NCBI GenBank assembly: GCA_002937585.1
Contig: PTKE01000005.1
Coordinates: 1 to 62,024, forward strand
DNA from: Alphaproteobacteria bacterium MarineAlpha9_Bin6
GTDB lineage: Bacteria > Pseudomonadota > Alphaproteobacteria > UBA7887
Reading direction: 5' to 3'
Length of the DNA: 62,024 nucleotides
Shown: positions 3,381 to 57,404 of the stretch, piece after piece
Layout: every line of letters starts with the position of its first letter
Numbering within the stretch: position 1 is the first letter of the stretch
Notes under the pieces: generated by a model
The model's input: the letters and a program-made list of their open reading frames with translations, nothing else
Told to the model about the DNA's origin: nothing
Databases searched by the model: none
Translations under genes and position numbers: made by a program

Positions 3381-3563
3381 TTAGATGACTTGTCAGGTTA
3401 CTTCCATCTCAATGTGCACAGTAATTCTGACCTAGTGATTGGTCAATCCAGCGCCATATGATTTACAATTTTTACTTCGAAAATTTCAGTGCCGATTGCA
3501 TTGCGGTTAATCTCGATTTACGTCAAAGACTCTCTAATATTAGCCTAGATTAGTTCCGACAGC

Positions 3564-5351
3564 GTGGGTGGTGCGAAGATGATAAATGCTGCAATGGCCG
3601 TGTCGAGACCGAAGACCAAACACGTCGCATGTCTTGTATTATCTGGGTCGCTGTGGACTTGGATGGCTTTTGCAGCTGAAGGCGGGGCACCAGAATCTTC
3701 CGGTGGGCATATGCCACAGGGTCTGGTGAGGGAGGGGCAGGAATTGATTGCTGTGGCCAATCCTCACGCTGCAAACTTGGGTGCGGCCATCCTACGAGCC
3801 GGAGGCAGTGCGCTAGATGCAGCCATCACGGCTCAATTAGTGCTTAATCTGGTTGAGCCTCAGTCATCTGGGTTGGGTGGCGGAGCCTTCTTACTCTATT
3901 TTGATTCTGCCTCCGGAGAATTGACTAGCTACGACGGGCGCGAAACCGCCCCGGCTTCAGCAAAGCCTAATATGTTTCTCGAGCCAGACGGCGCCTCGCC
4001 CGGTTACCTCGCGGCCTTGGTGGGGGGGAACTCAGTCGGTACTCCCGGGTTATTGCGTATGCTGGCGCTTGCACACGGGGCCCATGGGCGTTTGTCTTGG
4101 GCCGAACTATTTGTGCCAGCAATAGATCTTGCAGAGAACGGGTTCGCTATCAGTCCACGCCTCCATGCGCTAGCTGGAAAGGTCCCTACCCTCACACAGT
4201 TTAATATGACAGCAGAATATTTCTTAGCGTCTGATGGGCGGCCAAAAGCAGTGGGTACGAAGCTTGTCAACGGGGCCTTTGCCCAAACGTTGCGGGAGCT
4301 CGCCGCGGGGGGCGCGGAATTGTTTTACCTTGGGCCAATTGCGCGTGAAATTGCCGAAACGGTCACTTTTGCGACAGTTAATCCGGGTGGGTTGACGGTT
4401 TCGGATATTGCTAATTATCGGCCAAGTATACGACCTCCGGTATGCGCTGATTACCGGGGCTTTCTCGTATGTGGTATGGGGCCACCGAGTTCTGGAGGGA
4501 TTGCAGTGTTGCAGATCCTTGGTTTGCTTGCACATTTTGATATGGGTTCCATGACTCCGTGGTCGGTGGATGCGGCGCATCTATTTTTAGAAGCAAGTCG
4601 CCTGGCTTTTGCTGATCGTGCGCGATATGTCGCGGATCCCGATTTCGTTAGTGTGCCGGTAAAGGGGTTATTAGACGGAATTTATCTTGACCAACGTGCC
4701 GCTCTCATCAACCCAATGATTGCCAACGGCGCGGCCACACCGGGCTTGCCGCCTGGGGCCCAAGCTAGCTTTTTTGCGGACGATGATTCAGCTGAGCTTC
4801 TGTCGACCACGCATATCAGCATCTTTGACCGATACGGTAACGTCGCTTCAATGACAAGTAGCATCGAGTTTGCGTTTGGTTCAGCCTTAATGGTGCGTGG
4901 TTTTTTGCTAAATAATCAGTTGACCGATTTTTCTTTTACTTCTGTACGTGATGGTTTCCCCGTCGCTAACCGGGTAGAACCCGGAAAACGACCACGTAGT
5001 TCAATGGCACCAACGGTGGTTTTTGACGGAAGTGGCCATCCATTGTTGGCGATCGGTTCTCCAGGCGGCTCGCGTATTATTTGCTACGTAGCAAAGGCTT
5101 TGATCGGTGTGATTGATTGGGGTCTGGATCTCGACCAAGCGGTTACACATGCGAACTTGTGCAATCGGAATGGTCCTTCAGAGCTTGAGGCGGGTAGTTC
5201 AATGCTTGATCTAGGAGCATCCTTGGAAGAGCGCGGCCATGAAGTCGTTATACGCGAAATGAACAGTGGCTTGCATGCGGTTATGGTGGCAGGTGATAGT
5301 TTGGTTGGGGCAGCGGATCCTCGTCGTGAGGGCGCAGTGCGAGGCCGCTGA
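3564..5351 (+). CDS. ggt: Gamma-glutamyltransferase
   Basis: VEPQSSGLGGGAF, YDGRETAP, PPSSGG, nucleophile 'STTH', NNQLTDF, PGKRPRSSMAP, GSPGG, ADPRREG. Confidence 0.93.
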   Translation: MGGAKMINAAMAVSRPKTKHVACLVLSGSLWTWMAFAAEGGAPESSGGHMPQGLVREGQELIAVANPHAANLGAAILRAGGSALDAAITAQLVLNLVEPQSSGLGGGAFLLYFDSASGELTSYDGRETAPASAKPNMFLEPDGASPGYLAALVGGNSVGTPGLLRMLALAHGAHGRLSWAELFVPAIDLAENGFAISPRLHALAGKVPTLTQFNMTAEYFLASDGRPKAVGTKLVNGAFAQTLRELAAGGAELFYLGPIAREIAETVTFATVNPGGLTVSDIANYRPSIRPPVCADYRGFLVCGMGPPSSGGIAVLQILGLLAHFDMGSMTPWSVDAAHLFLEASRLAFADRARYVADPDFVSVPVKGLLDGIYLDQRAALINPMIANGAATPGLPPGAQASFFADDDSAELLSTTHISIFDRYGNVASMTSSIEFAFGSALMVRGFLLNNQLTDFSFTSVRDGFPVANRVEPGKRPRSSMAPTVVFDGSGHPLLAIGSPGGSRIICYVAKALIGVIDWGLDLDQAVTHANLCNRNGPSELEAGSSMLDLGASLEERGHEVVIREMNSGLHAVMVAGDSLVGAADPRREGAVRGR

Positions 5352-5604
5352 GCACGATTCCTGTAGACCTGTATATTTAATTTTAGGCTTATATATCGTG
5401 TATGGGGCGATCGGAAATGTGTGGCGAGCTTAAAGACTATAGTGGCAGTTAGTCCTTGTTCCTGCTATGGGCGCCTATATTTCTTGCTCTATCGGGTTTT
5501 TTTGGTGCGGGTAGCTTGGACCGTTGCTTGAAAGTGCAGTGTTGGTTACTTAAGTCCAGGGCCAAGTAACTAAAGTCCATCGTTCAGACCCATCAAGACT
5601 GAGT

Positions 5605-5644
5605 CCCGTAAAAAGCGGGTTGCTCGTTTGGGGGCGTTGTAATG
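5605..5644 (+). promoter_or_regulatory. Candidate ROSE-type RNA thermometer in hsp20 leader
   Basis: Hairpin CCCG-taaaaag-CGGG followed by GUUGCUC-guuu-GGGGGC. The UUGCU motif with a bulged G pairs with the G-rich SD region just before ATG 5642. Confidence 0.5.
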
Positions 5645-6070
5645 GCACGTTCATCTATATTTGGTAGTCCGATGTTGGTGGGATTTGAGCCGTTCGAGCG
5701 GATGCTTGAACAAATGTCTAAGGCTTCATCCGATGGCTATCCACCCTACAATATAGAGCAGCTCAACGAGCGTCAGTTCAGGATTTCTCTCGCTGTTGCG
5801 GGATTTGGGCCAGAGGAGTTGAGTGTAGTGGTCGATGATAGTCGACTAACAATTTCCGGACACCATCGTGAGGACGGACACCAAAGTTTTCTCCATCGCG
5901 GCATCGCGACCCGACAATTTCAGCGTAGCTTTTTGTTGGCTAACGGACTCGAAATTTCCGGATCTTGGTTGGATAACGGCATGCTCCATATCGACATCGT
6001 GCGTCTTGATCCGGGGACGCGTGTCCGACAAATCGAAATTAGAAGCTCGCCAAAGAACGGTTCGCAATAA
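5642..6070 (+). CDS. Small heat-shock protein (Hsp20/IbpA family)
   Basis: YPPYNIE, LAVAGF, LHRGIA.RQF.RSF.LA, L.NG.L.ID motifs. Confidence 0.93.
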   Translation: MARSSIFGSPMLVGFEPFERMLEQMSKASSDGYPPYNIEQLNERQFRISLAVAGFGPEELSVVVDDSRLTISGHHREDGHQSFLHRGIATRQFQRSFLLANGLEISGSWLDNGMLHIDIVRLDPGTRVRQIEIRSSPKNGSQ

Positions 6071-6090
6071 ATACATTAGGAGAAAATTAT

Positions 6091-7734
6091 TTATCCTGCA
6101 GCTAAGGGTATCCGGACGACGAAGCAGGCTCCGGACACCGTGGTTTTTTCGTTGTCCCTTGATGCTCGGTTTGAAGCCACTACACCTCCTCCATGTGCTT
6201 CCAAAATTTGTCTTGCGATGCTTAGCCCTAACCCTGAGTGATCGCCAAATTTCTCGCCCGCTGGCCGGTCACTGTAAAAACGCTTGAATACGCTATCGAT
6301 GCTTCCCAGCGGCAAGCCCGGACCTTCATCCTCAACGAGGATTTCGGCGAATTCGTCTCGGTTGTCCAGTGAGATGCTAACTTTCCCACCGTCCGGGCTA
6401 AAACTGATCGCATTGTCCAGAAGATTTCGAAAGGCTTGAGCAAGCTGGCTTTCAATTCCTTGCACCAAAACTGGTTTTCTCAATTCCGAGATGAACTCTA
6501 AGTGCACCTCCCGCAAATCAGCCCGCGCGCCGTAGACTTCAACCATGGCACTGAGCATGTTTTGTAATTGGACAGGCTCAGTGAGGCCTCTTGCAAGTTC
6601 AGCATCCAAACGGGAGGCTGCGGAAATATCTGTGATCAACCGGTCCATCCGGCGGATGTCGTCGTTCAATATTTTAAATAACCGGTCACGCTTATGTGGA
6701 TCATCAATGCTCTGGAGTGTCTCAGCGGCGCTACGCAGGCTGGATAAGGGATTTTTTAGCTCGTGCGCGACATCCGCGGCGAAACCCTCAACTGCGTCAA
6801 TGCGTTCCCATAGTGTCTCAGTCATGCGACGTAGGGCCACACTCAGTTCTCCGATCTCATCACGCCGCGCCGATAGATTTGGAATCTCTTGGGCCCGTCC
6901 TAGATCGCGGGCAACGCGGTCGGCACTAGCTGCAAGCCAACGTATCGGGCGTGCAACAGAGCGTGCTAAATAAGTGGATAGCAGGGCTGTGACCAAAAAT
7001 GCTAGCGCTGAAAGTAACAAGATTTGAATGCGCATAGACTGCACGCGCGCGTCTATACCGGTAGTGTCCGCGGTCAAAAGCAAAGCACCGACTACCTGTT
7101 TAAAACGCTGGACTGGTGCCGCGGCTAATAAAATTGCGCCCCCGTGCTCCAGTCGTTGGACACTAGCAGTCTTATCTCCGCTGAGTGCATTAGCTACTTC
7201 GAGATAATGGTTGGCAGTCTGGTCTGGGTATTCAATGTAGCGTTGCAAATTGGCACGTCCCCCGCGGTCCACCCAACGACTTAACTGGGAAAGCCATTGC
7301 TTTATAGCGCCAATCATAACTGGGGATGGTAATTCTTTAAGGCGCACTTCTGCGCCACCCACTGCGAGAAGGCGCGTATCCGCTATCAGTTGGCCGCTAG
7401 GATCGAACAACCTAGCGCGAAGCTTAATTGGTGGAACCAGCCGTCGAAGGACCTGCTGACTGCGTTTGGTGTCAATTTGTTGCGGCAGAATGGGGTCACG
7501 AGGGACGGCGCTTTCACCGAGGGCGGCAGCGAAAGCCTCCGCTTCGGTTTGTAGTGCGTCTAAGCGCTCGATCATTAAACCTCGCTGATATTGGGCAAGG
7601 TAAAGAATGCCTCCGGCTACAATTGCCAGCGCAACAATATTGATTGCAAGTAGCCGAAGAGTAAGCTTTGAAATCGCCGGTGACTTATAAACAGGCCGCA
7701 TCGCCATCGGGTGCGTTTCAACGGCGATACCCAT
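6091..7734 (-). CDS. chvG: Sensor histidine kinase ChvG/ExoS
   Basis: Two TM segments, HAMP, FAADVAHELKNPL H-box, NLLDNA, DEGPG, FYSDRP, HSGLGLSI. Directly downstream of chvI. Start uncertain (ORF extends to 7899, overlapping chvI). Confidence 0.88.
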   Translation of the reverse strand: MGIAVETHPMAMRPVYKSPAISKLTLRLLAINIVALAIVAGGILYLAQYQRGLMIERLDALQTEAEAFAAALGESAVPRDPILPQQIDTKRSQQVLRRLVPPIKLRARLFDPSGQLIADTRLLAVGGAEVRLKELPSPVMIGAIKQWLSQLSRWVDRGGRANLQRYIEYPDQTANHYLEVANALSGDKTASVQRLEHGGAILLAAAPVQRFKQVVGALLLTADTTGIDARVQSMRIQILLLSALAFLVTALLSTYLARSVARPIRWLAASADRVARDLGRAQEIPNLSARRDEIGELSVALRRMTETLWERIDAVEGFAADVAHELKNPLSSLRSAAETLQSIDDPHKRDRLFKILNDDIRRMDRLITDISAASRLDAELARGLTEPVQLQNMLSAMVEVYGARADLREVHLEFISELRKPVLVQGIESQLAQAFRNLLDNAISFSPDGGKVSISLDNRDEFAEILVEDEGPGLPLGSIDSVFKRFYSDRPAGEKFGDHSGLGLSIARQILEAHGGGVVASNRASRDNEKTTVSGACFVVRIPLAAG

Positions 7735-8690: not shown

Positions 8691-9422
8691 ATGAGTTTAT
8701 CGTCTCAATCAACTGTTGTTGCTGCTGGTGCGCGTGCTTTGGTTCGTCAATGTGATCGGGCGATACTATCTACGGCACAAGCTGATGAAGGTGGTTGGCC
8801 CTATGGATCCCTGGTCATGACTGCGTGTGACTACGAGGGAAAGCCGATTATGCTGCTTTCGGATCTTGCTGAGCACAGCAAAAATCTCAGTCAGGATGTG
8901 CGAGCTTCATTATTGTTTGATGCTACTGATGGCCTTGAGAATCCATTAACTGGTGCACGGGTCACTGTGATGGGACGTGCAGTTTTGACTAAAACACTAA
9001 CGGATAGGGAGCGTTACTTGGCAAGACATCCGTCTTCTGCCGTATACGTAGATTTTGCTGATTTTAAGTTTTACTCCGTGGAGGTGACACGGGTTCACCA
9101 GGTTGCAGGCTTCGGGCAGATTGATTGGATCTCAGCTGAAGCGTTCCTGTGCGAAACTAGTCGGATGACGGAATTCGCCGCAGTCGAAGCGCAGATTATT
9201 GAAAAGTTAAATCGGGAAAGTATGGATAAGGAGTCACTTTATGGGAGTGTTTCCTTGGTTTTAGCAGGCGACGATTGGAGTTTTACGGGGATCGACCCAG
9301 AAGGCTGTGATCTGCGAGCAGGTAGTCGAGTTAGGCGGATTCTTTTTGATAAGCCTGTGACCGATTTGGCAAGCACTCTAGATGCGCTTAAGGAATTAGC
9401 TGGGCGCACGACCACTGCCTAG
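8691..9422 (+). CDS. HugZ-like pyridoxamine-5'-phosphate-oxidase-fold protein
   Basis: PYGSLV, LLSDLAEH..NL..D.RASLL, RYLARHP, YVDF.DF, VAGFG.I.W, GIDPEG.DL. Confidence 0.85.
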   Translation: MSLSSQSTVVAAGARALVRQCDRAILSTAQADEGGWPYGSLVMTACDYEGKPIMLLSDLAEHSKNLSQDVRASLLFDATDGLENPLTGARVTVMGRAVLTKTLTDRERYLARHPSSAVYVDFADFKFYSVEVTRVHQVAGFGQIDWISAEAFLCETSRMTEFAAVEAQIIEKLNRESMDKESLYGSVSLVLAGDDWSFTGIDPEGCDLRAGSRVRRILFDKPVTDLASTLDALKELAGRTTTA

Positions 9423-9635: not shown

Positions 9636-10613
9636 ATGATGAACGTGCCAACTCCTTCAGGCGATTTGTTGGCGCCGGTGCTCGCTGGTAAGGCGCGGGC
9701 GATTGCTCGTCTAATCAGTCGCGCTGAGATGGGCAGTCCGGAGTGTCTCCAGACGCTTGCAAAGATTTATCGTAGTGCGGGACACGCTCATGTGATTGGC
9801 ATCACTGGTGTGCCGGGTAGTGGAAAATCCACTTTGGTGCGATCCTTTGCTCAGGCGGTGCGTCGGGAAGGTCGTACGATCGCCGTGGTAGCAATTGATC
9901 CATCCAGCCCATTTTCGGGTGGTGCGATTCTGGGCGATCGTATACGAATGCTTGAAATTGCGCGTGATCCGGGTGTGTTCATTCGCAGTATGGCGACGCG
10001 AGGAGTACTCGGCGGGCTCGCCCGGGCGGCACTCGACGCGGTAGACATATTGGATGCAGCGGGCTTCGATCTCGTTGTAATAGAAACTGTTGGTGTTGGT
10101 CAGGATGAGGTCGATATCGTTCAGGCTGCGCATTCGACAGTGGTTGTCTCGGCTCCCGGACTTGGAGATGATGTGCAGGCAATCAAGGCGGGGATTTTAG
10201 AAATCGCGGACATCCATGTTGTAAGCAAGGCGGACCGGGCGGATGCTAACAAGACTGTCACTGATCTCACGCAGATGCTTGCCATGGGTCTCCCAGAAAT
10301 ATCTGATAAAGTTTGGGTAACACCCGTTCTTTCTATCAGTGCTCTGAACGATGATGGTGTAACGGGTCTTTTAGTGTCTCTTGATAAGCATCGCGCTTTT
10401 CTCCATGAGTCGGGTAACATAAGCAAGAGATCTCGCCGGATCGCCGCTCATCGGATCTTAATGATTGCTGAAGAGGTTATTCGGGAACGCTTGGCTGTGG
10501 ACCAGAGTCAGGTGATGCAAGCTCTTCTGGATCGCGTGTTGGCGCGCGAGGTGGATCCGCATAGTGCAGCAGTCGAATTTTTGGCAAGGGTGAATGAGAA
10601 CGCTTCGAAATGA
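9636..10613 (+). CDS. meaB: MeaB/MeaH-type G-protein chaperone of B12 acyl-CoA mutase
   Basis: GITG.PG.GKST, DPSSPFSGGAILGDRIRM, FIRSMATRG, ETVGVGQ.E, GDDVQAIKAG. Stop overlaps the mutase start (ATGA). Confidence 0.92.
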   Translation: MMNVPTPSGDLLAPVLAGKARAIARLISRAEMGSPECLQTLAKIYRSAGHAHVIGITGVPGSGKSTLVRSFAQAVRREGRTIAVVAIDPSSPFSGGAILGDRIRMLEIARDPGVFIRSMATRGVLGGLARAALDAVDILDAAGFDLVVIETVGVGQDEVDIVQAAHSTVVVSAPGLGDDVQAIKAGILEIADIHVVSKADRADANKTVTDLTQMLAMGLPEISDKVWVTPVLSISALNDDGVTGLLVSLDKHRAFLHESGNISKRSRRIAAHRILMIAEEVIRERLAVDQSQVMQALLDRVLAREVDPHSAAVEFLARVNENASK

Positions 10614-12328
10614 GTAAGAGGACCGTGACTAAAGTTGGAGAAGTTGCAAAGGACATGCGGCTCGAGCAGCTACAGCAAAGCTTCGCAGATTGGGAAAAAA
10701 ATGAACTAGCGAACTTCTTAAGCCGGACCCCTGAGTCCAAACAAGATTACCGAACAGCCTCAGGAACAAAGCTCAAGCGCATATACAGTGCTCTGGACGT
10801 CGCGGATACACCGATCGAGGATATCGGGTTGCCGGGACGTTATCCATTTACACGCGGACCATACCCGACAATGTATCGAGGTCGGAACTGGACCATGCGC
10901 CAAATTGCTGGATTTGGTACTGGTTCAGACACCAATCAAAGGTACAAGTTTCTGCTCAAAAGCGGCCAGACAGGGCTATCTACTGATTTCGATATGCCAA
11001 CGCTGATGGGTTACGACTCCGATCATCCAATGGCACATGGAGAAGTTGGTCGAGAGGGCGTTGCAATTGATACTCTGGATGATATGGAAGCCTTATTTAA
11101 GGGTATTGATCTTACTGCGATTTCAGTATCGATGACGATCAATCCCTCGGCTTGGGTTTTGTACTCGATGTATATCGCCCTTGCCGAGAGCAGAGGATAC
11201 GATTTAAACAAATTATCCGGTACCATCCAAGCCGATATTCTCAAGGAATATATTGCTCAAAAGGAATGGATTTTTCCGATCCGGCCCTCGGTGCGATTGG
11301 CACGTGATTGCATTGCATATGGGGCCAGGAACATGAGGCGTTATAATCCAATCAACATTTCCGGCTACCACATATCCGAGGCAGGTGCGACTGCAGTTCA
11401 GGAAGCTGCCTTCACGATGGCAAATACCATTGCTTATGTAGAAGAGGTGACAAAGGCTGGGGTCGATGTTGACGAGTTTGCACCAAGGCTGTCGTTTTTT
11501 TTCGTTAGCCAGGCAGATTTTTTTGAGGAGATAGCCAAGTTTAGGGCTCTACGTAGAGTGTACGCGAAAATTATGAGGCATCGTTTCGGAGCAAAGAATC
11601 CGGAGTCGATGCGGCTTCGGTTCCACACTCAAACCGCTGCTGCCACGCTCACCAAACCACAATATATGGTTAATGTTGTGCGCACTGCCTTTCAGGCGTT
11701 GGCAGCCGTGCTAGGTGGGACCCAAAGTTTACATACAAATGGCATGGATGAGGCATTCACAATTCCTAGCGAGGAAGCAATGCGTCTATCCCTTCGAACT
11801 CAGCAGGTGATTGCTGACGAAACCAATATAACCTCAGTGGTCGACCCTCTAGGTGGTTCCTATATGGTCGAAACTCTGACCACTCAGATGGAGCGGGACA
11901 TTTTCACTATTCTTGATACGGTCGATTCCATGGGAGGAACGATTAAGGCGATAGAGGACGGTTGGTTTCAGCGTAAGATTGCGGAGTCGTCTTATGATTT
12001 TGCTATTCGCAAAGCGAGCGGCGAAAATCCGGTGATAGGAGTTAATAAATATATCGAGGATAATGAAAGCGAACCTCAGATTGGACTGCACCCCTATGAT
12101 CCGGAAACAGAGGCGCGTCAGGTAGCAAATTTGACCCACACTCGAACAAATCGTGATGAAGGGAAGGTACAAGCTTTGTTGAAGGAATTGATAATTCACG
12201 CAAGGGAGGAGTCGAAAAATTTGATGCCTATTACTATTGAGTTGGTCAAGGCGCGTGCCTCAATGGGCGAAATTGTTGAAACACTAAAAAGCCTTTGGGG
12301 TACCTATCGCGAAAATCCGGTAATCTGA
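10610..12328 (+). CDS. hcmA: B12-dependent acyl-CoA mutase large subunit, 2-hydroxyisobutyryl-CoA mutase type
   Basis: PFTRGPYPTMYR, TMRQIAGFG (Ile99), STDFDMPT (Asp126), ISGYHISEAG, QSLHTNG.DEA. No C-terminal DxHxxG cobalamin domain. Confidence 0.85.
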   Translation: MSKRTVTKVGEVAKDMRLEQLQQSFADWEKNELANFLSRTPESKQDYRTASGTKLKRIYSALDVADTPIEDIGLPGRYPFTRGPYPTMYRGRNWTMRQIAGFGTGSDTNQRYKFLLKSGQTGLSTDFDMPTLMGYDSDHPMAHGEVGREGVAIDTLDDMEALFKGIDLTAISVSMTINPSAWVLYSMYIALAESRGYDLNKLSGTIQADILKEYIAQKEWIFPIRPSVRLARDCIAYGARNMRRYNPINISGYHISEAGATAVQEAAFTMANTIAYVEEVTKAGVDVDEFAPRLSFFFVSQADFFEEIAKFRALRRVYAKIMRHRFGAKNPESMRLRFHTQTAAATLTKPQYMVNVVRTAFQALAAVLGGTQSLHTNGMDEAFTIPSEEAMRLSLRTQQVIADETNITSVVDPLGGSYMVETLTTQMERDIFTILDTVDSMGGTIKAIEDGWFQRKIAESSYDFAIRKASGENPVIGVNKYIEDNESEPQIGLHPYDPETEARQVANLTHTRTNRDEGKVQALLKELIIHAREESKNLMPITIELVKARASMGEIVETLKSLWGTYRENPVI

Positions 12329-12337
12329 GCAAATCCG

Positions 12338-13432
12338 ATGAGTACTGTCGCGACACCCGTGGTTGTTACGTTCAAAGGTACTGCGCCAAATTGGGGTGCG
12401 GCCGATTTCGGGTTAGGAGCGGCGGTAATCGGGCGGGCTAGCCTGGGTAAGGATGTCTCGTTGGGTCCTTGGGCAACATTGCGTGGTGACGGCAATTTTC
12501 TCGAAGTTGGAGACGGTTGTCGGTTCCTTGATAGGGCCACTGTGCATATAGCGGATGGCATTTACCCTACTCGAATGGGTCGCAATATTACTGTTGGTCG
12601 TTTTGCATTAGTCCACGCTTGTACTATTGCCGATGACTGCATTCTAGGGGACGCAGCCGTGGTGATGGATAATTCTTCCGTTGGCGCTGGCACAGTGATC
12701 GCTGCCGGTGCGTTGGTCCCTCCAGGTAAAAAACTTGACGGTGGATGGCTTTATGACGGAAATCCAGCGCAGCCCGTGCGCGAGGTGTCGTTGGATGAGC
12801 GTGAGCAATTGCGTTCCATTCTGCTGGCCGGCGAGAACAGTGACATCGTGCGTGATTCAAACCTGCCGCCTCTTGATATGAAGCCATTTATACCGACGGG
12901 TAGTGGTGAGGGGCCACTCTACCCCCTTGGGGGTGCTAAACCCCTGATTGATGCGAGAGGCTATGTCGCGCCCACAGCAGTTGTTGTAGGTGATGTGGTG
13001 GCGGCTGAGGGCACCAGCATCTGGTTTTCCACCGTCATGCGGGGAGACGGAGCGCCGATCATCCTTGGTGAACGCAGTAATGTTCAGGACAACTCAATTC
13101 TGAGTACCGATGCGCGTCGTGGACCTATAACCATCGGTGCGGATGTTACCATTGGCCACAACGTTAGAATGGGAGCCTGCACTCTCGGCGACGAATGTTT
13201 AATCGGTATGGGTGCGCAACTTAGTGATGGTGTAGTAGTAGAGAACGGTGCACTAGTGGGAGCCCGCGCTTATGTTGAACCAGAGACCTTAGTCAAGGCC
13301 GGGTATATTTGGGCGGGTCGTCCGGCTGTTGAGTTCCGACCAGTGAAGCCTGAGGAACATGAGTTTTTTCAGCGCGGCAAGGAAGTTTATGTTGGTTACA
13401 CCGACACATACCTTGCGGAACAGGCGGCGTGA
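12338..13432 (+). CDS. Tandem two-domain gamma-carbonic-anhydrase-like (YrdA/PaaY/CaiE) hexapeptide-repeat protein
   Basis: Two left-handed beta-helix domains (aa ~10-165 and ~195-360), each with (L/M)RGD and G.PA...R motifs. Starts 9 bp after hcmA. Confidence 0.85.
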   Translation: MSTVATPVVVTFKGTAPNWGAADFGLGAAVIGRASLGKDVSLGPWATLRGDGNFLEVGDGCRFLDRATVHIADGIYPTRMGRNITVGRFALVHACTIADDCILGDAAVVMDNSSVGAGTVIAAGALVPPGKKLDGGWLYDGNPAQPVREVSLDEREQLRSILLAGENSDIVRDSNLPPLDMKPFIPTGSGEGPLYPLGGAKPLIDARGYVAPTAVVVGDVVAAEGTSIWFSTVMRGDGAPIILGERSNVQDNSILSTDARRGPITIGADVTIGHNVRMGACTLGDECLIGMGAQLSDGVVVENGALVGARAYVEPETLVKAGYIWAGRPAVEFRPVKPEEHEFFQRGKEVYVGYTDTYLAEQAA

Positions 13433-13457: not shown

Positions 13458-13763
13458 TCAATCGTAGCCGAAAAACCATCGGGTTATGCCGTTGTTAGAG
13501 TTCTTAACCGAATGAACGGCCCCTTTAGGAATAAAGACCTCGTCGCCGGGATCGACCATGAGGCGTTGACTGGCAACTGTCATTTCGAGCCGACCTTCCG
13601 CCACGGTTACGAGCTCGTTGGTCTGGTGGACAAAGTTATTCCATTCTTGGCCCGGCGGATCGACGAATGGTCGGCAGTCATAGCCACGTGCCTTCCAGTC
13701 ACGCATCACTTCGTCACAAACTATTGGCGGAGAAAATTTATTGCGTGTAACGAGACAGACCAT
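13458..13763 (-). CDS. Small cupin-domain protein
   Basis: H..NELV.V.EG.L and PGDEVFIP.G.VHSV.N cupin motifs. Confidence 0.85.
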   Translation of the reverse strand: MVCLVTRNKFSPPIVCDEVMRDWKARGYDCRPFVDPPGQEWNNFVHQTNELVTVAEGRLEMTVASQRLMVDPGDEVFIPKGAVHSVKNSNNGITRWFFGYD

Positions 13764-14491: not shown

Positions 14492-15472
14492 TTATTCGCC
14501 CCAGACCTTAGCTAAAATCGTGAGCCAGTTCTCCCCCATCACCTTTCTGATTTGTTTTTCGGTCCAGCCCCGCGTAATCATGGCTGTGGTAAGATTGGGA
14601 AACTCGCCTAATCGTTGAAAGCCGGGCGGGTTTTTGATTTCACCGAAATCGGTAAGTTTGCGCCCCGTACCTTTGTCGTGGGTGATCCAATCAAAGAATG
14701 GTTCACCATAGTCTTGCGTCATGTCAGTTCCTATACCCACTTGGTTTTCCCCAGCGACATTGATCACGTGCTCTATGGCGTCCAGATAATCTTCGAGGCT
14801 CGAGTTTGCTCCTTTGGGCAAAAATGGTGGAAACATTGTCACGCCGACAAAGCCGCCTTGCTCGGCAATAAACCTGAGTTCCTCATCTGTTTTGTTGCGT
14901 GGGTGTTCCCGCAGTGCTTTGGGGCATATGTGGGAGTAGCAAACCGGTGCCTTTGAATGACGGATCGCATCGGCACTGGTTTTTGAACCTACATGCGACA
15001 AATCTACCAGCATGCCGAGCTGGTTCATTTCATCAATCACATCCCGTCCAAAATCAGATAATCCGCCATCTTCGCTTTCGTAGCAGCCGCTTCCGACCAA
15101 GTTCTGTGTGTTGTAAGTAAGTTGCACCACGCCCACGCCGAGGTTTTTGAAAAGACCTAGGAAATCCAGTCGGTCCTCAATTGGGCTGGCATTCTGCCAC
15201 CCTAGGACGATCCCGACTTTTCCTTCGGCTTTGGCTCGCTGAATGTCAGACACGGCCCTAACCTGAATTAAAAGATCGTCGCAACTCTTAAACCAATTAT
15301 GCCACTGCGCGATATTCTCCATCGTGCCACGAAAGCCTTCCCATACCGCGCATGTACAGTTAGCTGCGGTGACCCCACCTCGCTTCATGTCCTCAAATAC
15401 TGCGCGACTCCAGTTTGAGACGATCAGGCCATCAAATACGACCATGCTATCATGGAGATTTTGGGTGTTCAC
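14492..15472 (-). CDS. Membrane dipeptidase (M19) family protein, betaine-catabolism-associated type
   Basis: DGL..SNWSR.VFEDM..GG.TAANCT, QLTYN.QN..G.GCYE, DLSHVG, YSH, HPRNK, GIGTD, MGENW. Confidence 0.85.
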   Translation of the reverse strand: MNTQNLHDSMVVFDGLIVSNWSRAVFEDMKRGGVTAANCTCAVWEGFRGTMENIAQWHNWFKSCDDLLIQVRAVSDIQRAKAEGKVGIVLGWQNASPIEDRLDFLGLFKNLGVGVVQLTYNTQNLVGSGCYESEDGGLSDFGRDVIDEMNQLGMLVDLSHVGSKTSADAIRHSKAPVCYSHICPKALREHPRNKTDEELRFIAEQGGFVGVTMFPPFLPKGANSSLEDYLDAIEHVINVAGENQVGIGTDMTQDYGEPFFDWITHDKGTGRKLTDFGEIKNPPGFQRLGEFPNLTTAMITRGWTEKQIRKVMGENWLTILAKVWGE

Positions 15473-15615
15473 CGGAGTGGGGTCCGCAGCACGTTTATGA
15501 GTGGCATCAGTTGCTCGTCATTCCTCCGAACAACCTCATGTTGCGACATGGGAATAGACAGGTCAAGATGGCTCGGTTGGGTGGAGCGAGAACTAACCGC
15601 ATAGAGAACTGCATT

Positions 15616-17016
15616 ATGAGAGCCAAACCTGCGGCAGAAACTGTACAGTCCGCATCAAGTGGAGATGATTATCAATCCTGGCTGACCCGCGAACCGTCCT
15701 TTGTCACGACGGGTGGTGGCTTGGATTCGGATGTGGCGGCTCTCAAACAGTTTAGCGATGCGGGCGATGGTTTGCTCCAGCTTTCTACCGGGGGTAAAGG
15801 CCTTGATCACAAAAATTTAGACCTAACGCGTCTAATTAAGGACAAAATCCATGATGTCCGCGCTGCTTTCCTGCGTGTTCATGCGGAGGCAGTGTACTCC
15901 TCATTAACTGACACTTTTGCCCAGCCGGTTCGGATTCAATCCTTGGTGGACACAGCTGTCCGCCGCTACCCAGGTTTATTGCCGAGTGCCTCCAAAATCA
16001 CGGAAGATGCCACCCGAAGTTTAAAGGAGAAAGAAGGCCACGAACGAGCCATCGGGTTATTGTTATCGCATATTTTTGCGAATCCTCGGGCAGGCATTCA
16101 TTTGCTCCAAAGTATGTTGCGGCCGCTACCCGATTCGGTTGAAGAAACGGCTAAGTTCAGCCGTGACGGCGTACTTGATTTGGGAGCTGCCGTGCTCCGC
16201 CGTACTGGAAAAGCGGCCGAGTTGTTGATGTACAACCCAGAGTACCTGAACGCCGAGGACGCGAGCACTATCGGGCCCATGGAGCAGGCGGTGGATGTCG
16301 CAATACTCGATCCAATCACAGAGGTATGCGTGTTGCGTGGTACACCAGCACAGCACCCGCGTTATGCGGGCCGCAACATTTTTTGCAGCGGCCTCAACCT
16401 GACTCATCTTTATGAAGGAAAAATACCGTATCTTTGGTATCTCACACGCGATCTCGGTTTTGTGAACAAAATCGCGCACGGATTGTTGGATGATCCGGAC
16501 GCAATAGATGATCCTATGCCTACGGTTGAAAAGCCATGGATTGCTGCGGTAGAGACCTTTGCGATCGGTGGCGGATGTCAATACCTACTGGTAATGGATT
16601 ACACCCTCGCTGAAAAAAGCGCTTATTTGACTTTGCCGGCCCGCAAGGAAGGCATTATTCCCGGCTTAACTAACATGCGTTTGCCAAGGTTCGTCGGAGA
16701 TCGAATTACCCGACAGGCAATATTGTTTGATCGTCGGCTTGAAGCGGATAGCCCTGAAGGGCGAATGATTGTTGATCAAATTGTGCCAGACGGTGAGATG
16801 AGCTCAGCAGTGGAAGCAACTGTGCAAAAATTAACTAGTTCCGGCAGTGTCAGCACCGTTGGTAACCGCAAAGCGCTGAGAGTGTGTCAGGAAAGTTTGG
16901 ATGATGTGCGAAGGTATATGGCAAGCTACGCCCGTGAGCAGGTAAAATGCCATCTGAGTCCGGCTTTAGTTCGAAATTTAGAGGACAACTGGCTTAAGCC
17001 AAAGGGCAAGCTGTAG
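15616..17016 (+). CDS. dpgC: DpgC-like (3,5-dihydroxyphenyl)acetyl-CoA 1,2-dioxygenase, crotonase superfamily
   Basis: N-terminal helical extension (FLR.HA..VY..LT, PGLLP, KEG.E...G), LNAED, HPRYAGR..FCSG.NL, EKPWIAAV..FAIGGG.Q.LLV.D, LPARKEGIIPG..N.RL.RF.G. Likely start ATG 15616. Confidence 0.8.
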   Translation: MRAKPAAETVQSASSGDDYQSWLTREPSFVTTGGGLDSDVAALKQFSDAGDGLLQLSTGGKGLDHKNLDLTRLIKDKIHDVRAAFLRVHAEAVYSSLTDTFAQPVRIQSLVDTAVRRYPGLLPSASKITEDATRSLKEKEGHERAIGLLLSHIFANPRAGIHLLQSMLRPLPDSVEETAKFSRDGVLDLGAAVLRRTGKAAELLMYNPEYLNAEDASTIGPMEQAVDVAILDPITEVCVLRGTPAQHPRYAGRNIFCSGLNLTHLYEGKIPYLWYLTRDLGFVNKIAHGLLDDPDAIDDPMPTVEKPWIAAVETFAIGGGCQYLLVMDYTLAEKSAYLTLPARKEGIIPGLTNMRLPRFVGDRITRQAILFDRRLEADSPEGRMIVDQIVPDGEMSSAVEATVQKLTSSGSVSTVGNRKALRVCQESLDDVRRYMASYAREQVKCHLSPALVRNLEDNWLKPKGKL

Positions 17017-17232
17017 CCAGCCTCATGCCCACCACTCGTGAAGCCATGATCTTTCGCATGTATGGTTTATCCGGATTGCAATGTCACCGACGGTCCTGTC
17101 GGTGCTCGGTGTCATGAACATAAGGTACCAGCAGCGGTTGCTATCGCGCCCGAAACGGGCTTGGCTGCTACACCTAAGCGGTCATTTCAAGGGTATCCAG
17201 GCCGGCGGAACCCTAGGATAACCCGTAGAAGA

Positions 17233-18027
17233 TTAACGGCCATGGAAAACTGGGTTTCGTTTCTCAACGAATGCTCGCACTGCTTCTTTGTGGTCTTCGG
17301 TCATGCCACAGCGTGTATGGTGCCAGGCTTCGAGGTCGAAGATTTCAGCTAGTGTACCGGTTTCCGCAGCGTTAAGGTTCTTCTTCATATACCCGAGAGC
17401 GATTTGCGGCCCGCCGGCCATTTGTTTCGCTAGCTCATGAGTTTCGGCCTCGAGATCTCCGTCAGAGACAATCCGATTGACCATTCCCAGTTTGAGGGCA
17501 CCTTCGGCGTCAATTAGGGCCGAAGTGAAGTACAGCTCTCGGGCTTTGGCAGTGCCGACCAGTCGGGTCAGAAAATAACTTCCGCCGAAGTCTCCTGAAT
17601 AACCTACCCGACCAAAAGCAGTGGTAAACTTTGCGCTTTCACCGGCAATTCGAAGATCGCAAGCCAGCGCTATTGAAAGCCCTGCTCCGGCAGCGGCTCC
17701 TGGAACCATCGCAATAGTTGGCTTGGACATGTTATGCAACCAGTGTGATACGTCCATACTGGTGCGTAAGGCGCGTGCTTTTGCTTCAAGCGTTTGTTCC
17801 TTAAACTCTTTACCCTCGGCCATTGCTTTGACGTCCCCCCCGGCACAAAAAGCTTTCCCAGCCCCGGTTAGTACAACTACGCCAACGCGTTCGTCCTCGG
17901 CTAAGCGTGGCAAGGCTTCGAGCAGACCATCAAGCATTTCTCCAGACAGCGCGTTGCGGCGTTCTGGGCGGTTCATTGTTAATGTCGCCACGCCATCGGC
18001 CGCGGTTTCAAGCAACACGTCGGTCAT
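17233..18027 (-). CDS. Enoyl-CoA hydratase/isomerase (PaaG-like)
   Basis: LTMNRPERRNAL, FCAGGDV, GAAAGAG.S.ALACD.R, GYSGDFGG, AF.EKR.P.F.G. Likely start MTDVLL at 18027. Confidence 0.88.
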   Translation of the reverse strand: MTDVLLETAADGVATLTMNRPERRNALSGEMLDGLLEALPRLAEDERVGVVVLTGAGKAFCAGGDVKAMAEGKEFKEQTLEAKARALRTSMDVSHWLHNMSKPTIAMVPGAAAGAGLSIALACDLRIAGESAKFTTAFGRVGYSGDFGGSYFLTRLVGTAKARELYFTSALIDAEGALKLGMVNRIVSDGDLEAETHELAKQMAGGPQIALGYMKKNLNAAETGTLAEIFDLEAWHHTRCGMTEDHKEAVRAFVEKRNPVFHGR

Positions 18028-18182
18028 TTTATCTGTTCCTTTGGTAGGGCATTCTTGTTGAGACAGCATTAGATCAAGTTGATCTGAGACCTGCAATTCT
18101 CCATTCATATTTTCCAGGAAGTGCGAAAAGATTGCTGCCACCACCCTTAACACGCTAACTAGGGTTCTCACTAACTGGAGGG

Positions 18183-19139
18183 ATGGATATGAAATTTGGC
18201 TTCAATGTTCCAGTGCGCGGTCCCGGCGCTGATCCCGCAGGAATGACGGAGATAGCTCGCCGTGCCGAGTCACTAGGCTATGACTATATTTCGGTAACGG
18301 ACCATATCGCTGTGCCCCGCAATATCGATTCCCGTTATCCCTATACAGAAGATGGAATGTTTCCGGGGCGCGCTGGCGAATATTTGGAGCCGTTAACTTT
18401 GATGGGTTTCCTTGCCGGGATTACCGATCGGGTGCAATTGTTAACCTCAATTTTAGTTGTCCCCCACCGTCCCGCAGTGCTGGCAGCGAAGATGATTTCC
18501 AGCCTGGACGTGATGTCCAAGGGTCGGGTCATATTGGGAATTGGGGCAGGTTGGATGAGAGAAGAGTTTGAGGCGATAGACGCTCCAGATTTTGATGCGC
18601 GTGGGCGGGTGACGGATGAATACCTTCAGGCATTTCGGATATTGTGGACAGAACAAAACCCGACTTTTCATGGTGAACACGTCACTTTTAATGATTTAAT
18701 TTTCGAGCCTAAACCCGTGCAGCCGCGCGGTCCGAGGATATGGGCGGGGGGCGAAAGCAAGGCTGCTAAGCGACGGGCTTCCACACTGGCAGATGGCTGG
18801 TTTCCGGTAGGGAACAACCCGAAATTCCCGTTGGACACTATGGAGCGTTATTCTGCGGCTCAGGATGAAGTCAAGGATTTGTCACAAAACGCTGACCGGG
18901 ATCCTGCAGCTCTTGATTTTGCATATTGGGCTATTTGGCCCTGGACCGGTGGGGCAGAAACTACAACGGATGGTGAGCGCCGGTTGTTGACTGGTACCGC
19001 CGAAGATCTGAAGGGTGATGTCAAACGGTTCGAGGATCGCGGTGTGCGCAACTTATCAATTATGTTGCTTGGAGGGAGCTTAGATAAAACTTTGGATAAT
19101 ATGGATCGATTTGCCGATCAAATAATGTCCAAGATCTAA
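18183..19139 (+). CDS. LLM-class probable F420-dependent oxidoreductase (Rv2161c-like)
   Basis: DHIAVP, SRYPY, VVPHRP.VL.AK....LDV.S.GR, G.GWMREEF, PKPVQ, GGES, DGWFP. Confidence 0.85.
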   Translation: MDMKFGFNVPVRGPGADPAGMTEIARRAESLGYDYISVTDHIAVPRNIDSRYPYTEDGMFPGRAGEYLEPLTLMGFLAGITDRVQLLTSILVVPHRPAVLAAKMISSLDVMSKGRVILGIGAGWMREEFEAIDAPDFDARGRVTDEYLQAFRILWTEQNPTFHGEHVTFNDLIFEPKPVQPRGPRIWAGGESKAAKRRASTLADGWFPVGNNPKFPLDTMERYSAAQDEVKDLSQNADRDPAALDFAYWAIWPWTGGAETTTDGERRLLTGTAEDLKGDVKRFEDRGVRNLSIMLLGGSLDKTLDNMDRFADQIMSKI

Positions 19140-19163
19140 ACGTAGATCTTTGTTCAATTGTGA

Positions 19164-20093
19164 ATGAATGGAATGATTATGGTGGAATTGGTTAAGGATA
19201 AGGTAGTGGTGGTGACTGGCTCTGGACGTGGCATTGGGCGCGAGATGGCGCTCCTGATGGCTGCTTATGGAGCCAAGGTAGTGGTCAATGACATTGGCGG
19301 CACTGAACGTGGTGATGGCGCCAATCAGGTGCCTGCGATGGAAGTGGTGGCAGAGATCAATGACTCTGGCGGCCAAGCCGTTGCACATTTTGGTAGTGTC
19401 TCAGAATTTGAATCAGCCCAGAGTATTGTAGATACGGCGCTCGAAAAATTCGGCCGGCTCGACGTTGTCATTAACAATGCTGGTATTTTGCGCGACGTGA
19501 TTTTTCATAAAATGACAGAAGAAGACTGGGACGCAGTCATTAACGTTCATTTGAAGGGCAGCTTCAATGTTAGTCGAGCCGCTGCGACAGTGTTCCGTGA
19601 GCAACAGTCAGGTTGCTTCGTTCATATGACCTCCACTTCCGGACTGATCGGAAACTTTGGTCAGGCCAACTATGCTGCTGCTAAGTTGGGGATAGTTGGT
19701 TTGGCTAAGTCGATTGCACTTGATATGGCGCGTTTCAATGTTCGTTCAAACTGTATTTCTCCGTTCGCCTGGACGCGGATGATTGGGACCATTCCAATTC
19801 ACGACGAGGCGCAAGCCCAGCGAATGGAAAAACTTAAGGAAATGAATCCGGCGAAGATAGCGCCACTGGCAGTGTATTTGGCGAGTGATGCTGCCACGGA
19901 TGTGTCAGGGCAAATTTTCGCGGTGCGTAACAACGAGATATTCCTGATGGGTCAATCGCGACCCTTACGGTCGGTGCAGCGTACCGAAGGATGGTGCCCT
20001 GAAACGATAGCTGCTCATGCGATTCCGGCGTTGGCAAAGCATTTTTACCCGTTGGACCGGTCCCAGGACGTGTTTGATTGGGATCCTGTATGA
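19164..20093 (+). CDS. SDR family oxidoreductase (hydroxyacyl-CoA dehydrogenase-like)
   Basis: TGSGRGIG, VVVND, NNAGILRD, GNFGQANYAAAK. Confidence 0.88.
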   Translation: MNGMIMVELVKDKVVVVTGSGRGIGREMALLMAAYGAKVVVNDIGGTERGDGANQVPAMEVVAEINDSGGQAVAHFGSVSEFESAQSIVDTALEKFGRLDVVINNAGILRDVIFHKMTEEDWDAVINVHLKGSFNVSRAAATVFREQQSGCFVHMTSTSGLIGNFGQANYAAAKLGIVGLAKSIALDMARFNVRSNCISPFAWTRMIGTIPIHDEAQAQRMEKLKEMNPAKIAPLAVYLASDAATDVSGQIFAVRNNEIFLMGQSRPLRSVQRTEGWCPETIAAHAIPALAKHFYPLDRSQDVFDWDPV

Positions 20094-20259
20094 CCGAATT
20101 TATACAGCGCATTATATAATGGGAAGTGACTATATTGTGGTCTCTTGCAACTTGCCGGACGCTTGCCACAATTTTAAAACAAGTTTAACGCAAGTACGCT
20201 GGCATGAGCAACGCGTTGAGCGGCGATTGCCGTAAGGCATTAAGTAGAAAGGGAGCGCG

Positions 20260-21300
20260 ATGCGACTGGGTTTACAACTGAGTTTGGCTGGGCCGAATTT
20301 TGCGATTGACATGGACTTGGTCCGTGAGGCGGAAACGCTTGGTTTTGACTCGGTCTGGACTGGCGAAGCCTATGGCTCGGATTCGGTGACACCTATCACG
20401 TGGGTTCTGGCCCAGACCGCTCGCATTAAGGCTGGCACCGCGATCATGCAAATGCCTGGCCGCACCCCCGCAATGGCAGCAATGACAGCAATGACATTGC
20501 AGGCCTTATCAGGCGGACGCTTTATCCTGGGCATCGGGCCGTCCGGACCCCAAGTTGTCGAAGGTTGGCATGGTGTGCCTTATGGAAAGCCTCTTACGCG
20601 GACTAGAGAATACATTTCGATCATACGCAAGATCCTGGCGCGGGAGAGTGCAGTAGAGTTTAAGGGGGAATATTACGAGCTTCCCTACACTGGCCCAGGA
20701 GCTACAGGGCTCGGAAAACCGTTACGCAGTATTATCAAGGGTGATCCGTCGCTCAAAATATATACCGCCGCAATTAGTCCCAATGGTGTTCGCACTAGCG
20801 CTGAGGTAGCGGACGGTGTATTTCCTTTCTTCACTGATCCCGAAAATTTCGAGGTTTTTGCAGGACCGATTGAAGAAGGATTTTCAAAAGCTAGAACCGG
20901 GAAAAGCCTAGAAAACTTTGAGGTGTTGCCGCTGGTCCAAGTTACTATCGGTGACGACCTCGAAGCCTGCCGACTTCCTACAAAGCAATTCCTTGCTCTT
21001 TACGGTGGTGGTATGGGCGCGCGTGGGAAAAACTTCTATAACGATCATATTAAGCGTTTGGGCTACGAAGAAGCAGCGGTCAAGATTCAGGATCTTTATT
21101 TAGGTGGCCAGAAACGTGCGGCTATTGGATCGGTGCCTGACGAATTGGTCGACAAGGTGGCATTGGTTGGCTCTAAAGATCGCATCCGCGACCGCTTAGG
21201 TGCATGGAAGGATGCAGCTGCGCAGCGCCACGTGGGGACTATGGTTGTCCCGGCGTCTGACGTAGACACCCTTCGGTTCCTTGCCGAGGAGTTACTCTAA
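20260..21300 (+). CDS. LLM-class probable F420-dependent oxidoreductase (Rv3520c-like)
   Basis: EAYGSD, IMQMPGRTPAMAAMTAMTL, SGPQVVEGWHG.PY.KPL.RTREY, GLGKPL, LY.GGMGA..KNFYN. Confidence 0.88.
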   Translation: MRLGLQLSLAGPNFAIDMDLVREAETLGFDSVWTGEAYGSDSVTPITWVLAQTARIKAGTAIMQMPGRTPAMAAMTAMTLQALSGGRFILGIGPSGPQVVEGWHGVPYGKPLTRTREYISIIRKILARESAVEFKGEYYELPYTGPGATGLGKPLRSIIKGDPSLKIYTAAISPNGVRTSAEVADGVFPFFTDPENFEVFAGPIEEGFSKARTGKSLENFEVLPLVQVTIGDDLEACRLPTKQFLALYGGGMGARGKNFYNDHIKRLGYEEAAVKIQDLYLGGQKRAAIGSVPDELVDKVALVGSKDRIRDRLGAWKDAAAQRHVGTMVVPASDVDTLRFLAEELL

Positions 21301-24514: not shown

Positions 24515-24537
24515 GTTACCAGCTATATTGTGCGACC

Positions 24538-57402: not shown

Positions 57403-57404
57403 CT

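Follow-up and report, generated by a model that had tools for sequence, protein, structure and literature searches.

Gamma-carbonic anhydrase (gamma-CA) domains normally form homotrimers, and in the metal site of Cam, according to PMC4519908, one monomer supplies His81 and His122 and the adjacent one His117. The gamma-CA heterotrimers of complex I are specialised in a similar way. For Arabidopsis complex I, Klusch et al. 2021 (PMC8290278) name gCA1_H130 together with gCA2_H107 and H135 as the only complete site; N99, Q101, D102 and Y207 of gCA1 and R86 of gCA2 are near it, so that the Asn, Gln, Asp and Tyr go with the single-His subunit and the Arg with the two-His subunit. Of the residues around such sites, Arg59-Asp61 is given as an intra-monomer salt bridge and Asp76 as inter-monomer in PMC12635333. 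Here we describe a tandem gamma-CA-like gene in a stretch of 62,024 nucleotides (below, the window, meaning this whole stretch) from Alphaproteobacteria bacterium MarineAlpha9_Bin6 (contig PTKE01000005.1, assembly GCA_002937585.1). A sequence-only reading of the window had noticed that the two halves of the encoded protein carry complementary metal ligands, had invoked the Cam and complex I arrangements, both of which the sources confirm, and had placed the gene behind hcmA, the gene for the large subunit of 2-hydroxyisobutyryl-CoA mutase. We consider it probable, short of confident, that the protein is a single-chain pseudo-heterodimer with one gamma-CA-type centre and that it belongs to the hcm pathway.

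The two domains carry complementary putative metal ligands

Residue equivalences were set by HMMER alignment to solved gamma-CAs. Against 9rmq and 3vnp, R88 falls on the second metal His and H93 on the third; against 3ixc, S256, H274 and G279 line up with the three His of the canonical domain. From the translation and these alignments, domain 1 (D1) carries R49, D51, H70 and H93, with R88 at the second-His position, and domain 2 (D2) carries N248, Q250, D251, N252, H274 and N275, with S256 and G279 at the first- and third-His positions. For H70, R88, H93, N248-x-Q-D, S256, H274 and G279 this is the distribution that had been read from the letters. Neither domain has all three metal His (H-R-H in D1, S-H-G in D2) and the set is complete only across both. 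The second shell is present once per chain, the equivalents of Arg59 and Asp61 being R49/D51 in D1 and those of Asn73, Gln75 and Asp76 being N248/Q250/D251 in D2.

The protein matches the gamma-CA family NF050158 in two stretches (203.2 bits summed) and the Pfam Hexapep family as well; its database annotation is "gamma carbonic anhydrase family protein", nothing more. The Hexapep match, and weak NCBIfam matches of the NeuD, DapD, WcaF and Vat types (25-52 bits), would fit a hexapeptide-repeat acyltransferase with a pathway acyl-CoA as donor. However, all strong sequence and fold matches belong to the gamma-CA class and the conserved residues are the gamma-CA metal-site set rather than an acyltransferase catalytic His, and we regard an acyltransferase as extremely improbable.

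Conservation of the ligand pattern in the family

A word-indexed search gave 732 relatives at E<=1e-5 among 8000 scored candidates, and the best 120 of these 732 (47-99% identity, 346-389 amino acids) were aligned with the query (n = 121). In these homologs of at least 47% identity, H70, H93 and H274 are each found in 121 of 121 sequences. Position 88 is Arg in 118/121 and never His, position 279 is Gly in 109/121 and never His, and position 256 is variable, with one His among the 121. R49 and D51 of D1 are each present in 121/121, and at their D2 equivalents, 235 and 237, Arg occurs in 42/121 and Asp in 35/121. In D2, Q250, D251 and N275 are each present in 121/121, N252 in 120/121 and N248 in 108/121, while the equivalent positions of D1, 62 and 64, are variable. 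Y351, Y354 and Y358 of the D2 C-terminal helix are invariant.

The pattern extends to a divergent set of 18 members at 32-51% identity (15 loci and three stored proteins, comprising PM1, Agrobacterium, M. bullatum, L007 and L087-L097). R49, D51, H70, H93, N248, Q250, D251, N252, H274 and N275 are kept in all 18; His was seen at position 88 in none, at 256 in L093 and at 279 in L096.

An exhaustive search of 1.84 billion cluster representatives returned 8405 matches at E<=1e-3, 89 of them at 1e-30, and the best 150 of the 8405 were examined. The tandem two-domain architecture was present in 32 of the 149 non-self representatives. Among the matches listed, the triad H70/H93/H274 was kept in 31 of these 32 tandem representatives, none of the 32 had His at 88, 256 or 279, and single-domain proteins were nearly all R-D-N-Q-D-H-H-H. 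The one tandem representative listed without the triad, P0153 (353 amino acids), has H93 replaced by Arg and H274 by Gln together and keeps N-Q-D; it looks like a decayed or re-purposed member. Two of the matches listed, P0140 (514 amino acids) and P0125 (826 amino acids), have three gamma-CA-like domains per chain, so single-chain pseudo-trimers exist beside the tandem family. The His patterns of P0140 are H-D-H in its domain A, R-H-H in domain B and the canonical H-H-H in domain C, and its complete interface would again be A-to-B. Short D1-only or D2-only look-alikes (e.g. P0165, P0185) were also present among the representatives and may be split genes or contig-end fragments.

Of the H-x-H / x-H-x pattern expected in two-domain homologs, the three His were kept in 121/121, 18/18 and 31/32 proteins, and random His loss, which would have spoken against a shared site, was not seen, the triad being invariant in the 121. 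Judged by these alignments, the complementary His pattern is far beyond chance.

Predicted structure and the D1/D2 interface

The AlphaFold2 monomer model, built on a 35-sequence alignment, has a pLDDT of 95.7 and a pTM of 0.92 with an ordered linker, and therefore implies a fixed D1/D2 arrangement. Both domains consist of a left-handed parallel beta-helix followed by a C-terminal alpha-helix. In Foldseek each half matches gamma-CAs, with target TM-scores (TMt) of 0.96 to 3ixc, 0.91 to 3tio and 0.85 to PaaY (8gpp), and no chain spanning both domains in one arrangement was found in the Protein Data Bank.

A complex was modelled from D1 (residues 1-178), D2 (179-364) and Zn as separate chains. 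The D1+D2+Zn model scored 0.94, a level reached by 58 of 80 solved complexes and by 2 of 110 mismatched pairs, and the best of three controls scored 0.00. Three runs agreed in at least 92% of contacts and partner pLDDT was at least 92. Contacts with the lowest expected error include 70-274, 93-274, 49-251, 70-251, 66-252 and 68-274, and the 49-251 contact matches the Arg59-Asp76 pair of Cam. The suggestion that H70, H93 and H274 would converge agrees with the contact list of this model, in which 70 and 93 both touch 274. A D1/D2 interface that rebuilds one complete 3-His site is supported by this model, by the conservation in the family and by the ligand split known from the literature.

The faces that would form the D1/D2 interface are more conserved than randomly drawn positions of the same domain. 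Entropy of the used face was 0.42 bits versus 1.18 for random sets in D2 (none of 5000 random sets was as low) and 0.96 versus 1.24 in D1 (3% of random sets), and the unused homologous faces, which would meet a third subunit, were not more conserved (1.41 and 1.25), a contrast that is only suggestive because some positions near the helix corner belong to both sets.

Since gamma-CA domains are normally homotrimeric (PMC4519908), D1 might instead trimerise with D1 and D2 with D2 in a stack, leaving no complete site and the His for another purpose. The pTM of the monomer model, its ordered linker and the D1/D2 model that brings 70, 93 and 274 together argue against such stacked homotrimers, and only a D1-to-D2 interface makes sense of D2 having lost Arg/Asp and D1 Asn/Gln. 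We regard them as very improbable. A third single-domain subunit that completes the trimer was also considered and was rejected as a general rule: the single-domain neighbour in L087 is a canonical three-His protein, and the genome of the window has no other gamma-CA-like gene.

Comparison with described gamma-CA-fold proteins

The nearest analogue in logic is the gCA1/gCA2/gCAL heterotrimer of complex I (e.g. 7aqq, 7a23), while in sequence and fold the nearest proteins are single-domain gamma-CAs of the CamH/YrdA type. In the heterotrimer, too, specialised units leave one complete interfacial His3 site. By its Asn/Gln/Asp/Tyr set D2 would correspond to the single-His partner, and by its Arg D1 to the two-His partner. 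Complex I gamma-CA chains also match both tandem halves by sequence (E 1e-33 to 1e-25). By contrast, the tandem protein joins two of the three positions into a single bacterial polypeptide. It is soluble, shows nothing that would anchor it to a membrane arm, stands outside any complex I context and is encoded in a CoA-ester catabolic operon. The likeness would be one of functional analogy only, not of membership.

The homotrimeric Cam/CamH/YrdA gamma-CAs (1qrg, 3tio, 3ixc, 1v3w) share the beta-helix and C-terminal helix (TMt 0.89-0.96) and the same interfacial metal-site residues, but each canonical domain has three His and each trimer three sites, whereas the tandem domains are not self-sufficient. 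PaaY, the thioesterase of the phenylacetate catabolon, has the same fold, and the tandem gene, like paaY, is found in a CoA-ester pathway whose genes include a PaaK-type CoA ligase and a GntR-type regulator. However, PaaY is a single-domain homotrimer, its family TIGR02287 is not matched above the cut-off, and the neighbours here are meaH and hcmA, not paa genes. CaiE of the carnitine operon is a comparable gamma-CA-like accessory protein in a CoA-ligase/CoA-ester operon, and one tandem-sized Atlas cluster (338 amino acids, 63 members) has been auto-named CaiE; CaiE itself differs in being single-domain and in its context, NF010150 is likewise missed, and no cai genes lie near the tandem gene. 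We have not filed the protein as a gamma-CA, as PaaY or as CaiE because neither of its domains has all three His and its scores stay below all curated cut-offs.

Linkage of the tandem gene to hcm clusters

Gene context was surveyed at 18 tandem-bearing places, the window and 17 loci. An hcmA-like gene (68-81% identity) with an adjoining meaB was found at ten of them (the window, L006, L007, L087, L089, L091, L094, L097, the plasmid of M. petroleiphilum PM1 and a plasmid of Agrobacterium deltaense), and in five of the ten the tandem gene comes directly after hcmA. In L091 hcmB comes after it. A thiamine diphosphate (TPP) enzyme gene stands immediately before it in PM1 and L097, and in L087 a canonical gamma-CA gene sits between the two. 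An eleventh place, L090, has the TPP-to-tandem adjacency on a contig that ends before any hcmA would show. The TPP enzyme exceeds the NCBIfam 2-hydroxyacyl-CoA lyase cut-off of 600 in L087 (812 bits), in PM1 (742 bits) and on contig C91 of the window's own genome (808 bits). The remaining seven places show no hcm or lyase gene; six are contigs of 1.4-4.7 kb and the seventh is M. bullatum.

Clusters with hcmA, hcmB, meaH and hcl contain the tandem gene in PM1, Agrobacterium deltaense, L007, L087, L091, L094 and L097. The PM1 order is a GntR regulator, then hcmB, hcl, meaB, hcmA, a hypothetical gene, an adenosyltransferase, the TPP protein, the tandem gene (product WP_011831868), which overlaps the lyase gene by 4 nucleotides, an adenosyltransferase and a 3-hydroxybutyryl-CoA dehydrogenase. 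In Agrobacterium the order is GntR, then hcmB, hcl, meaB, hcmA, the tandem gene, an adenosyltransferase and a major facilitator superfamily gene. GntR regulators flank the hcm clusters, and adenosyltransferase genes of the PduO type follow the tandem gene in both replicons. The PM1 plasmid (L170) has two PduO-type genes, at 6619-7200 upstream of the lyase gene and at 10040-10597 directly downstream of the tandem gene.

A scan of genome contigs with the single protein returned mostly single-domain gamma-CAs, with tandems only in L006 and L007. Besides the window's own, no tandem came out of a profile search at E<=1e-60 that covered 400 genomes of the phylum. This threshold could miss PM1-like members (about 33% identity), and the hcmA-bearing genomes were therefore searched again at 1e-15. 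There were five of these among the 400, with an hcmA-like gene at 59-71% identity in hcl-meaB-hcmA-adenosyltransferase or hcmB-meaB-hcmA-crotonase clusters. At 1e-15 these five had no tandem, only single-domain canonical gamma-CAs, and no lyase was found in them.

We also considered that the tandem gene might go with the 2-hydroxyacyl-CoA lyase instead of the mutase, and rejected this. Lyase homologs on the Azoarcus, Cupriavidus (one of two records) and Mycobacterium ELW1 plasmids have no annotated gamma-CA nearby, and no lyase was found in the tandem-bearing L007/G402 and L006/G401 (G401 and G402 being of uncertain completeness), on the Agrobacterium plasmid or in the M. bullatum record.

The association with the mutase is genuine, and it is conserved in both Alpha- and Betaproteobacteria; the tandem gene is an optional, not a constant, member of the hcm cluster. 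Of the linkage to hcmA proposed from the sequence, the association itself stands, with hcmA at 10 of 18 places, but it is not obligatory, given the five other hcmA genomes and M. bullatum, whose copy lies outside any hcm cluster.

The hcm genes of the window and of the same genome

The tandem open reading frame (ORF) begins 9 nucleotides past the stop of the 572-amino-acid ORF upstream, so the spacing given by the sequence-only reading agrees with the ORF coordinates, and its naming of the upstream gene as hcmA is borne out by the match to 4r3u_A (Table 1). That alignment spans residues 19-571, and the next-best solved relative, human methylmalonyl-CoA mutase (MCM), follows at E 2.9e-130. The protein is a large subunit of the MCM family and has no B12-binding domain. 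The Ile of RQIAGF and the Asp of STDFD, the signature residues of HcmA, are identical between the window protein and 4r3u in the alignment. The MeaB-type gene meaH is the first of the apparent operon and overlaps hcmA by 4 nucleotides; its TIGR00750 score lies above the cut-off of 240.75. A convergent cupin gene closes the unit. It is kept downstream of the tandem gene in the two closest relatives, L006 and L086, and is probably outside the system.

Table 1. Positions of the genes, domains and ligand codons (window coordinates, except the last three rows, which refer to contig C91, record L173)
Feature	Position	Strand	Description or support
meaH/meaB-type G-protein chaperone (GTPase) gene	9636..10613	+	325 aa; PF03308 MeaB 290.9 bits; TIGR00750 326.6 bits
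hcmA-like gene, large (substrate-binding) subunit of 2-hydroxyisobutyryl-CoA mutase	10610..12328	+	4r3u_A E 6.3e-268; PF01642 686 bits
Tandem gamma-CA-like gene	12338..13432	+	364 aa, ATG start
Domain 1, residues 1-178, left-handed beta-helix and helix 152-164	12338..12871	+	HMMER alignment, AlphaFold2 model
Linker and domain 2, residues 179-364, left-handed beta-helix and helix 338-363	12872..13432	+	HMMER alignment, AlphaFold2 model
H70 codon (Cam His81)	12545..12547	+	
H93 codon (Cam His122)	12614..12616	+	
H274 codon (Cam His117)	13157..13159	+	
Cupin gene, convergent	13458..13763	-	101 aa; PF07883 Cupin_2 43.7 bits
Lyase gene	2609-4378		
hcmB	4445-4879		
PaaK-like ligase gene	4836-6335		

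Near-identical copies of the stretch occur in many marine metagenome runs. In four marine metatranscriptome runs there are contigs that match meaH, hcmA and the tandem gene with 95-100% identity, and in three of these runs contigs bridge the hcmA/tandem junction (12208-12617, 12102-12424 and 12303-12447). This is consistent with co-transcription of hcmA and the tandem gene; contigs from RNA libraries may contain DNA and cannot prove a single transcript, and gaps in their cover (e.g. 13125-13265) are uninformative. A promoter and terminator scan found no promoter-like site and no convincing terminator behind the tandem gene.

The remaining hcm genes lie on contig C91 of the same genome, in the order lyase (NF058623), hcmB, PaaK-like ligase, beside a TRAP transporter. 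The small, B12-binding mutase subunit (hcmB) is thus apart from the hcmA contig, and the ligase Hcl is PaaK-like (TIGR02155, 260 bits). This genome, PM1 and several metagenome loci combine a mutase with a lyase for one and the same CoA ester, which may point to an acetone / formyl-CoA link. No alpha-CA (PF00194), beta-CA (PF00484) or other gamma-CA was found in this 98.6%-complete genome of 2.38 Mb.

Other genes of the window were also noted. A PNPOx/CREG-like beta-barrel protein with a DUF2470 domain (HutZ-like, weak match) is encoded at 8691-9422 (+), 214 nucleotides upstream of meaH on the same strand. An M19 dipeptidase (-), a DpgC-like crotonase-fold dioxygenase (+; NF042432, 387 bits, below the cut-off of 530) and an enoyl-CoA hydratase (-) occupy 14492-18171, in an order conserved in L006. 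An F420 biosynthesis set lies at 21358-26932 (+), and also at 18183-21300 and 26934-27887; it includes a fused radical-SAM CofH/CofG-like protein of 818 amino acids, an F420-dependent NADP oxidoreductase, CofE, CofD and CofC, and three luciferase-like monooxygenase genes flank it. Methylenetetrahydrofolate reductase and then a two-gene methionine synthase are encoded at 56428-61129 (+), the synthase being split into a homocysteine S-methyltransferase domain (57405-58457) and a pterin-binding/B12-binding/activation part (58454-61129) with a 4-nucleotide overlap.

Proposed mechanism and putative function

In the arrangement that we favour, the two left-handed beta-helix domains would pack like two neighbouring subunits of a gamma-CA trimer, and the protein would work like one interface of such a trimer, as the alignments and the model suggest. 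D1 would give the two-His side, with H70, H93 and the Arg/Asp pair R49/D51, and D2 the one-His side, with H274, N248, Q250, D251 and the tyrosines of its C-terminal helix. One complete metal centre per chain would result, and the other two would-be sites would be dead and evolving freely. The centre may hold a divalent metal (Zn or Fe), whose bound water or hydroxide would be kept in place by Q250 and N248, and may act as a hydrolase or hydratase for this CoA-ester pathway. The tandem gene is an accessory member of hcm clusters, probably co-transcribed with them, whether or not they include the 2-hydroxyacyl-CoA lyase.

Several points tell against this picture. The score of 0.94 was obtained for D1 and D2 chains that are an artificial cut of one chain, with an alignment of our own and a riding ligand that differ from the calibration of the tool. 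It may reflect memory of solved gamma-CA trimers, which are of the same kind, and the proximity of the modelled His residues is read from a contact list that gives no distances. Three helices make up a canonical gamma-CA, and this genome offers no third gamma-CA-like domain. The protein misses every family cut-off: 203.2 versus 250 bits for NF050158, 151.1 versus 319.6 for PaaY (TIGR02287) and 122.8 versus 305 for CaiE (NF010150). The tandem protein is dispensable for hcm, being present in none of the five hcmA-bearing genomes. The tandem gene of M. bullatum stands among housekeeping genes (MoaE, shikimate kinase, dehydroquinate synthase) over 9 kb on each side, and only MCM-like mutases of at most 42% identity were found in that record. 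As to function, nothing links the tandem protein more closely to PaaY than to ordinary gamma-CAs, and its complete Asn/Gln/Asp/Tyr set suits plain CO2 hydration equally.

Among possible activities we tentatively prefer a PaaY-like acyl-CoA thioesterase, by analogy. The cluster resembles the paa system with its paaK, paaX and paaY genes, in that a PaaK-like ligase, a GntR regulator and a gamma-CA-fold protein come together. The preference also follows from the description of PaaY as a bifunctional gamma-CA-type enzyme (CA activity together with the term thioesterase), and from the mutase pathway having no CO2 step. Such a thioesterase would release trapped CoA or clear away unwanted thioesters (2-hydroxyisobutyryl-CoA, formyl-CoA or a side product) stemming from the PaaK-like ligase Hcl, the mutase or the lyase.

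That the protein is a true carbonic anhydrase, converting CO2 to bicarbonate and back at one active site per chain, seems to us somewhat unlikely. Its linkage to hcm would mean a local need for, or removal of, inorganic carbon, or, the genome being small, would simply be where the only CA gene of the cell is located. The full CamH-type catalytic set at the D1/D2 interface (three His, Asn, Gln, Asp, Arg and helix tyrosines) would fit it, as would the finding of no alpha-, beta- or other gamma-CA in the genome and the M. bullatum protein, which keeps the ligand pattern outside any hcm cluster. The canonical three-His gamma-CA gene directly upstream of the tandem gene in L087 can be read both ways, since a canonical CA adjoining the tandem suggests that the two are not redundant. 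Against it, the NF050158 score of 203 bits is below the cut-off of 250, and nothing is carboxylated or decarboxylated on the way from 2-hydroxyisobutyrate to acetoacetyl-CoA by the mutase route (PMC7176365). The acetone carboxylase gamma subunit was not found in the genome, which is weak evidence as the search control matched nowhere either.

A more specific proposal, which we consider unlikely, is a dedicated and overlooked enzyme of the 2-hydroxyisobutyryl-CoA pathway: a monomeric gamma-CA-fold metallo-hydrolase acting at a single Zn-hydroxide site on a small pathway thioester, such as lyase-made formyl-CoA or surplus or misactivated 2-hydroxyisobutyryl-CoA, with the freed faces docking it onto the machinery of mutase, MeaH and adenosyltransferase. 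Docking without catalysis appears quite improbable. The protein would then be a structural one, with a structural metal, whose two free faces bind HcmA/HcmB, MeaH, the adenosyltransferase or the lyase, much like the complex I gCA/gCAL module or the carboxysome protein CcmM. The tight operon position after hcmA or the lyase (a 9-nucleotide gap here, a 4-nucleotide overlap in PM1) and the PduO-type adenosyltransferase genes that follow in PM1 and Agrobacterium would suit such a scaffold, and gamma-CA folds act as scaffolds elsewhere according to PMC8290278. However, conservation is lowest on the free faces, the residues that are strictly conserved are of catalytic type, and the search found no fusions to pathway proteins or longer proteins, which is weak evidence.

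Significance

Gamma-CA-fold proteins are very common and most have no known role. The tandem family is conserved yet appears to be unstudied. We found no paper that mentions the tandem gene in hcm clusters; the primary papers (Rohwerder 2006, Yaneva 2012, Hristova 2007) and their supplements lay outside the coverage of this search and could mention it. To our knowledge, asymmetric single-site gamma-CA assemblies are otherwise known only from the multi-gene heterotrimer of eukaryotic complex I. Here the same single-site solution would be hard-wired into one bacterial chain, with a very clean complementary conservation, and the tandem protein would be a simple, soluble system in which to ask what a single gamma-CA site does and why two others were given up.

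The finding also marks an uncharacterised gene in the hcm cluster of M. petroleiphilum PM1, a model degrader of fuel oxygenates, and in marine bacteria that express the gene. If the metallo-hydrolase reading were true, the protein would be the first single-chain asymmetric gamma-CA with a substrate other than CO2, and a missing component of the textbook methyl tert-butyl ether / 2-hydroxyisobutyric acid pathway of M. petroleiphilum PM1. Metabolic engineering now makes use of the 2-hydroxyisobutyrate, acetone and isobutene pathways, and these may lack a component.

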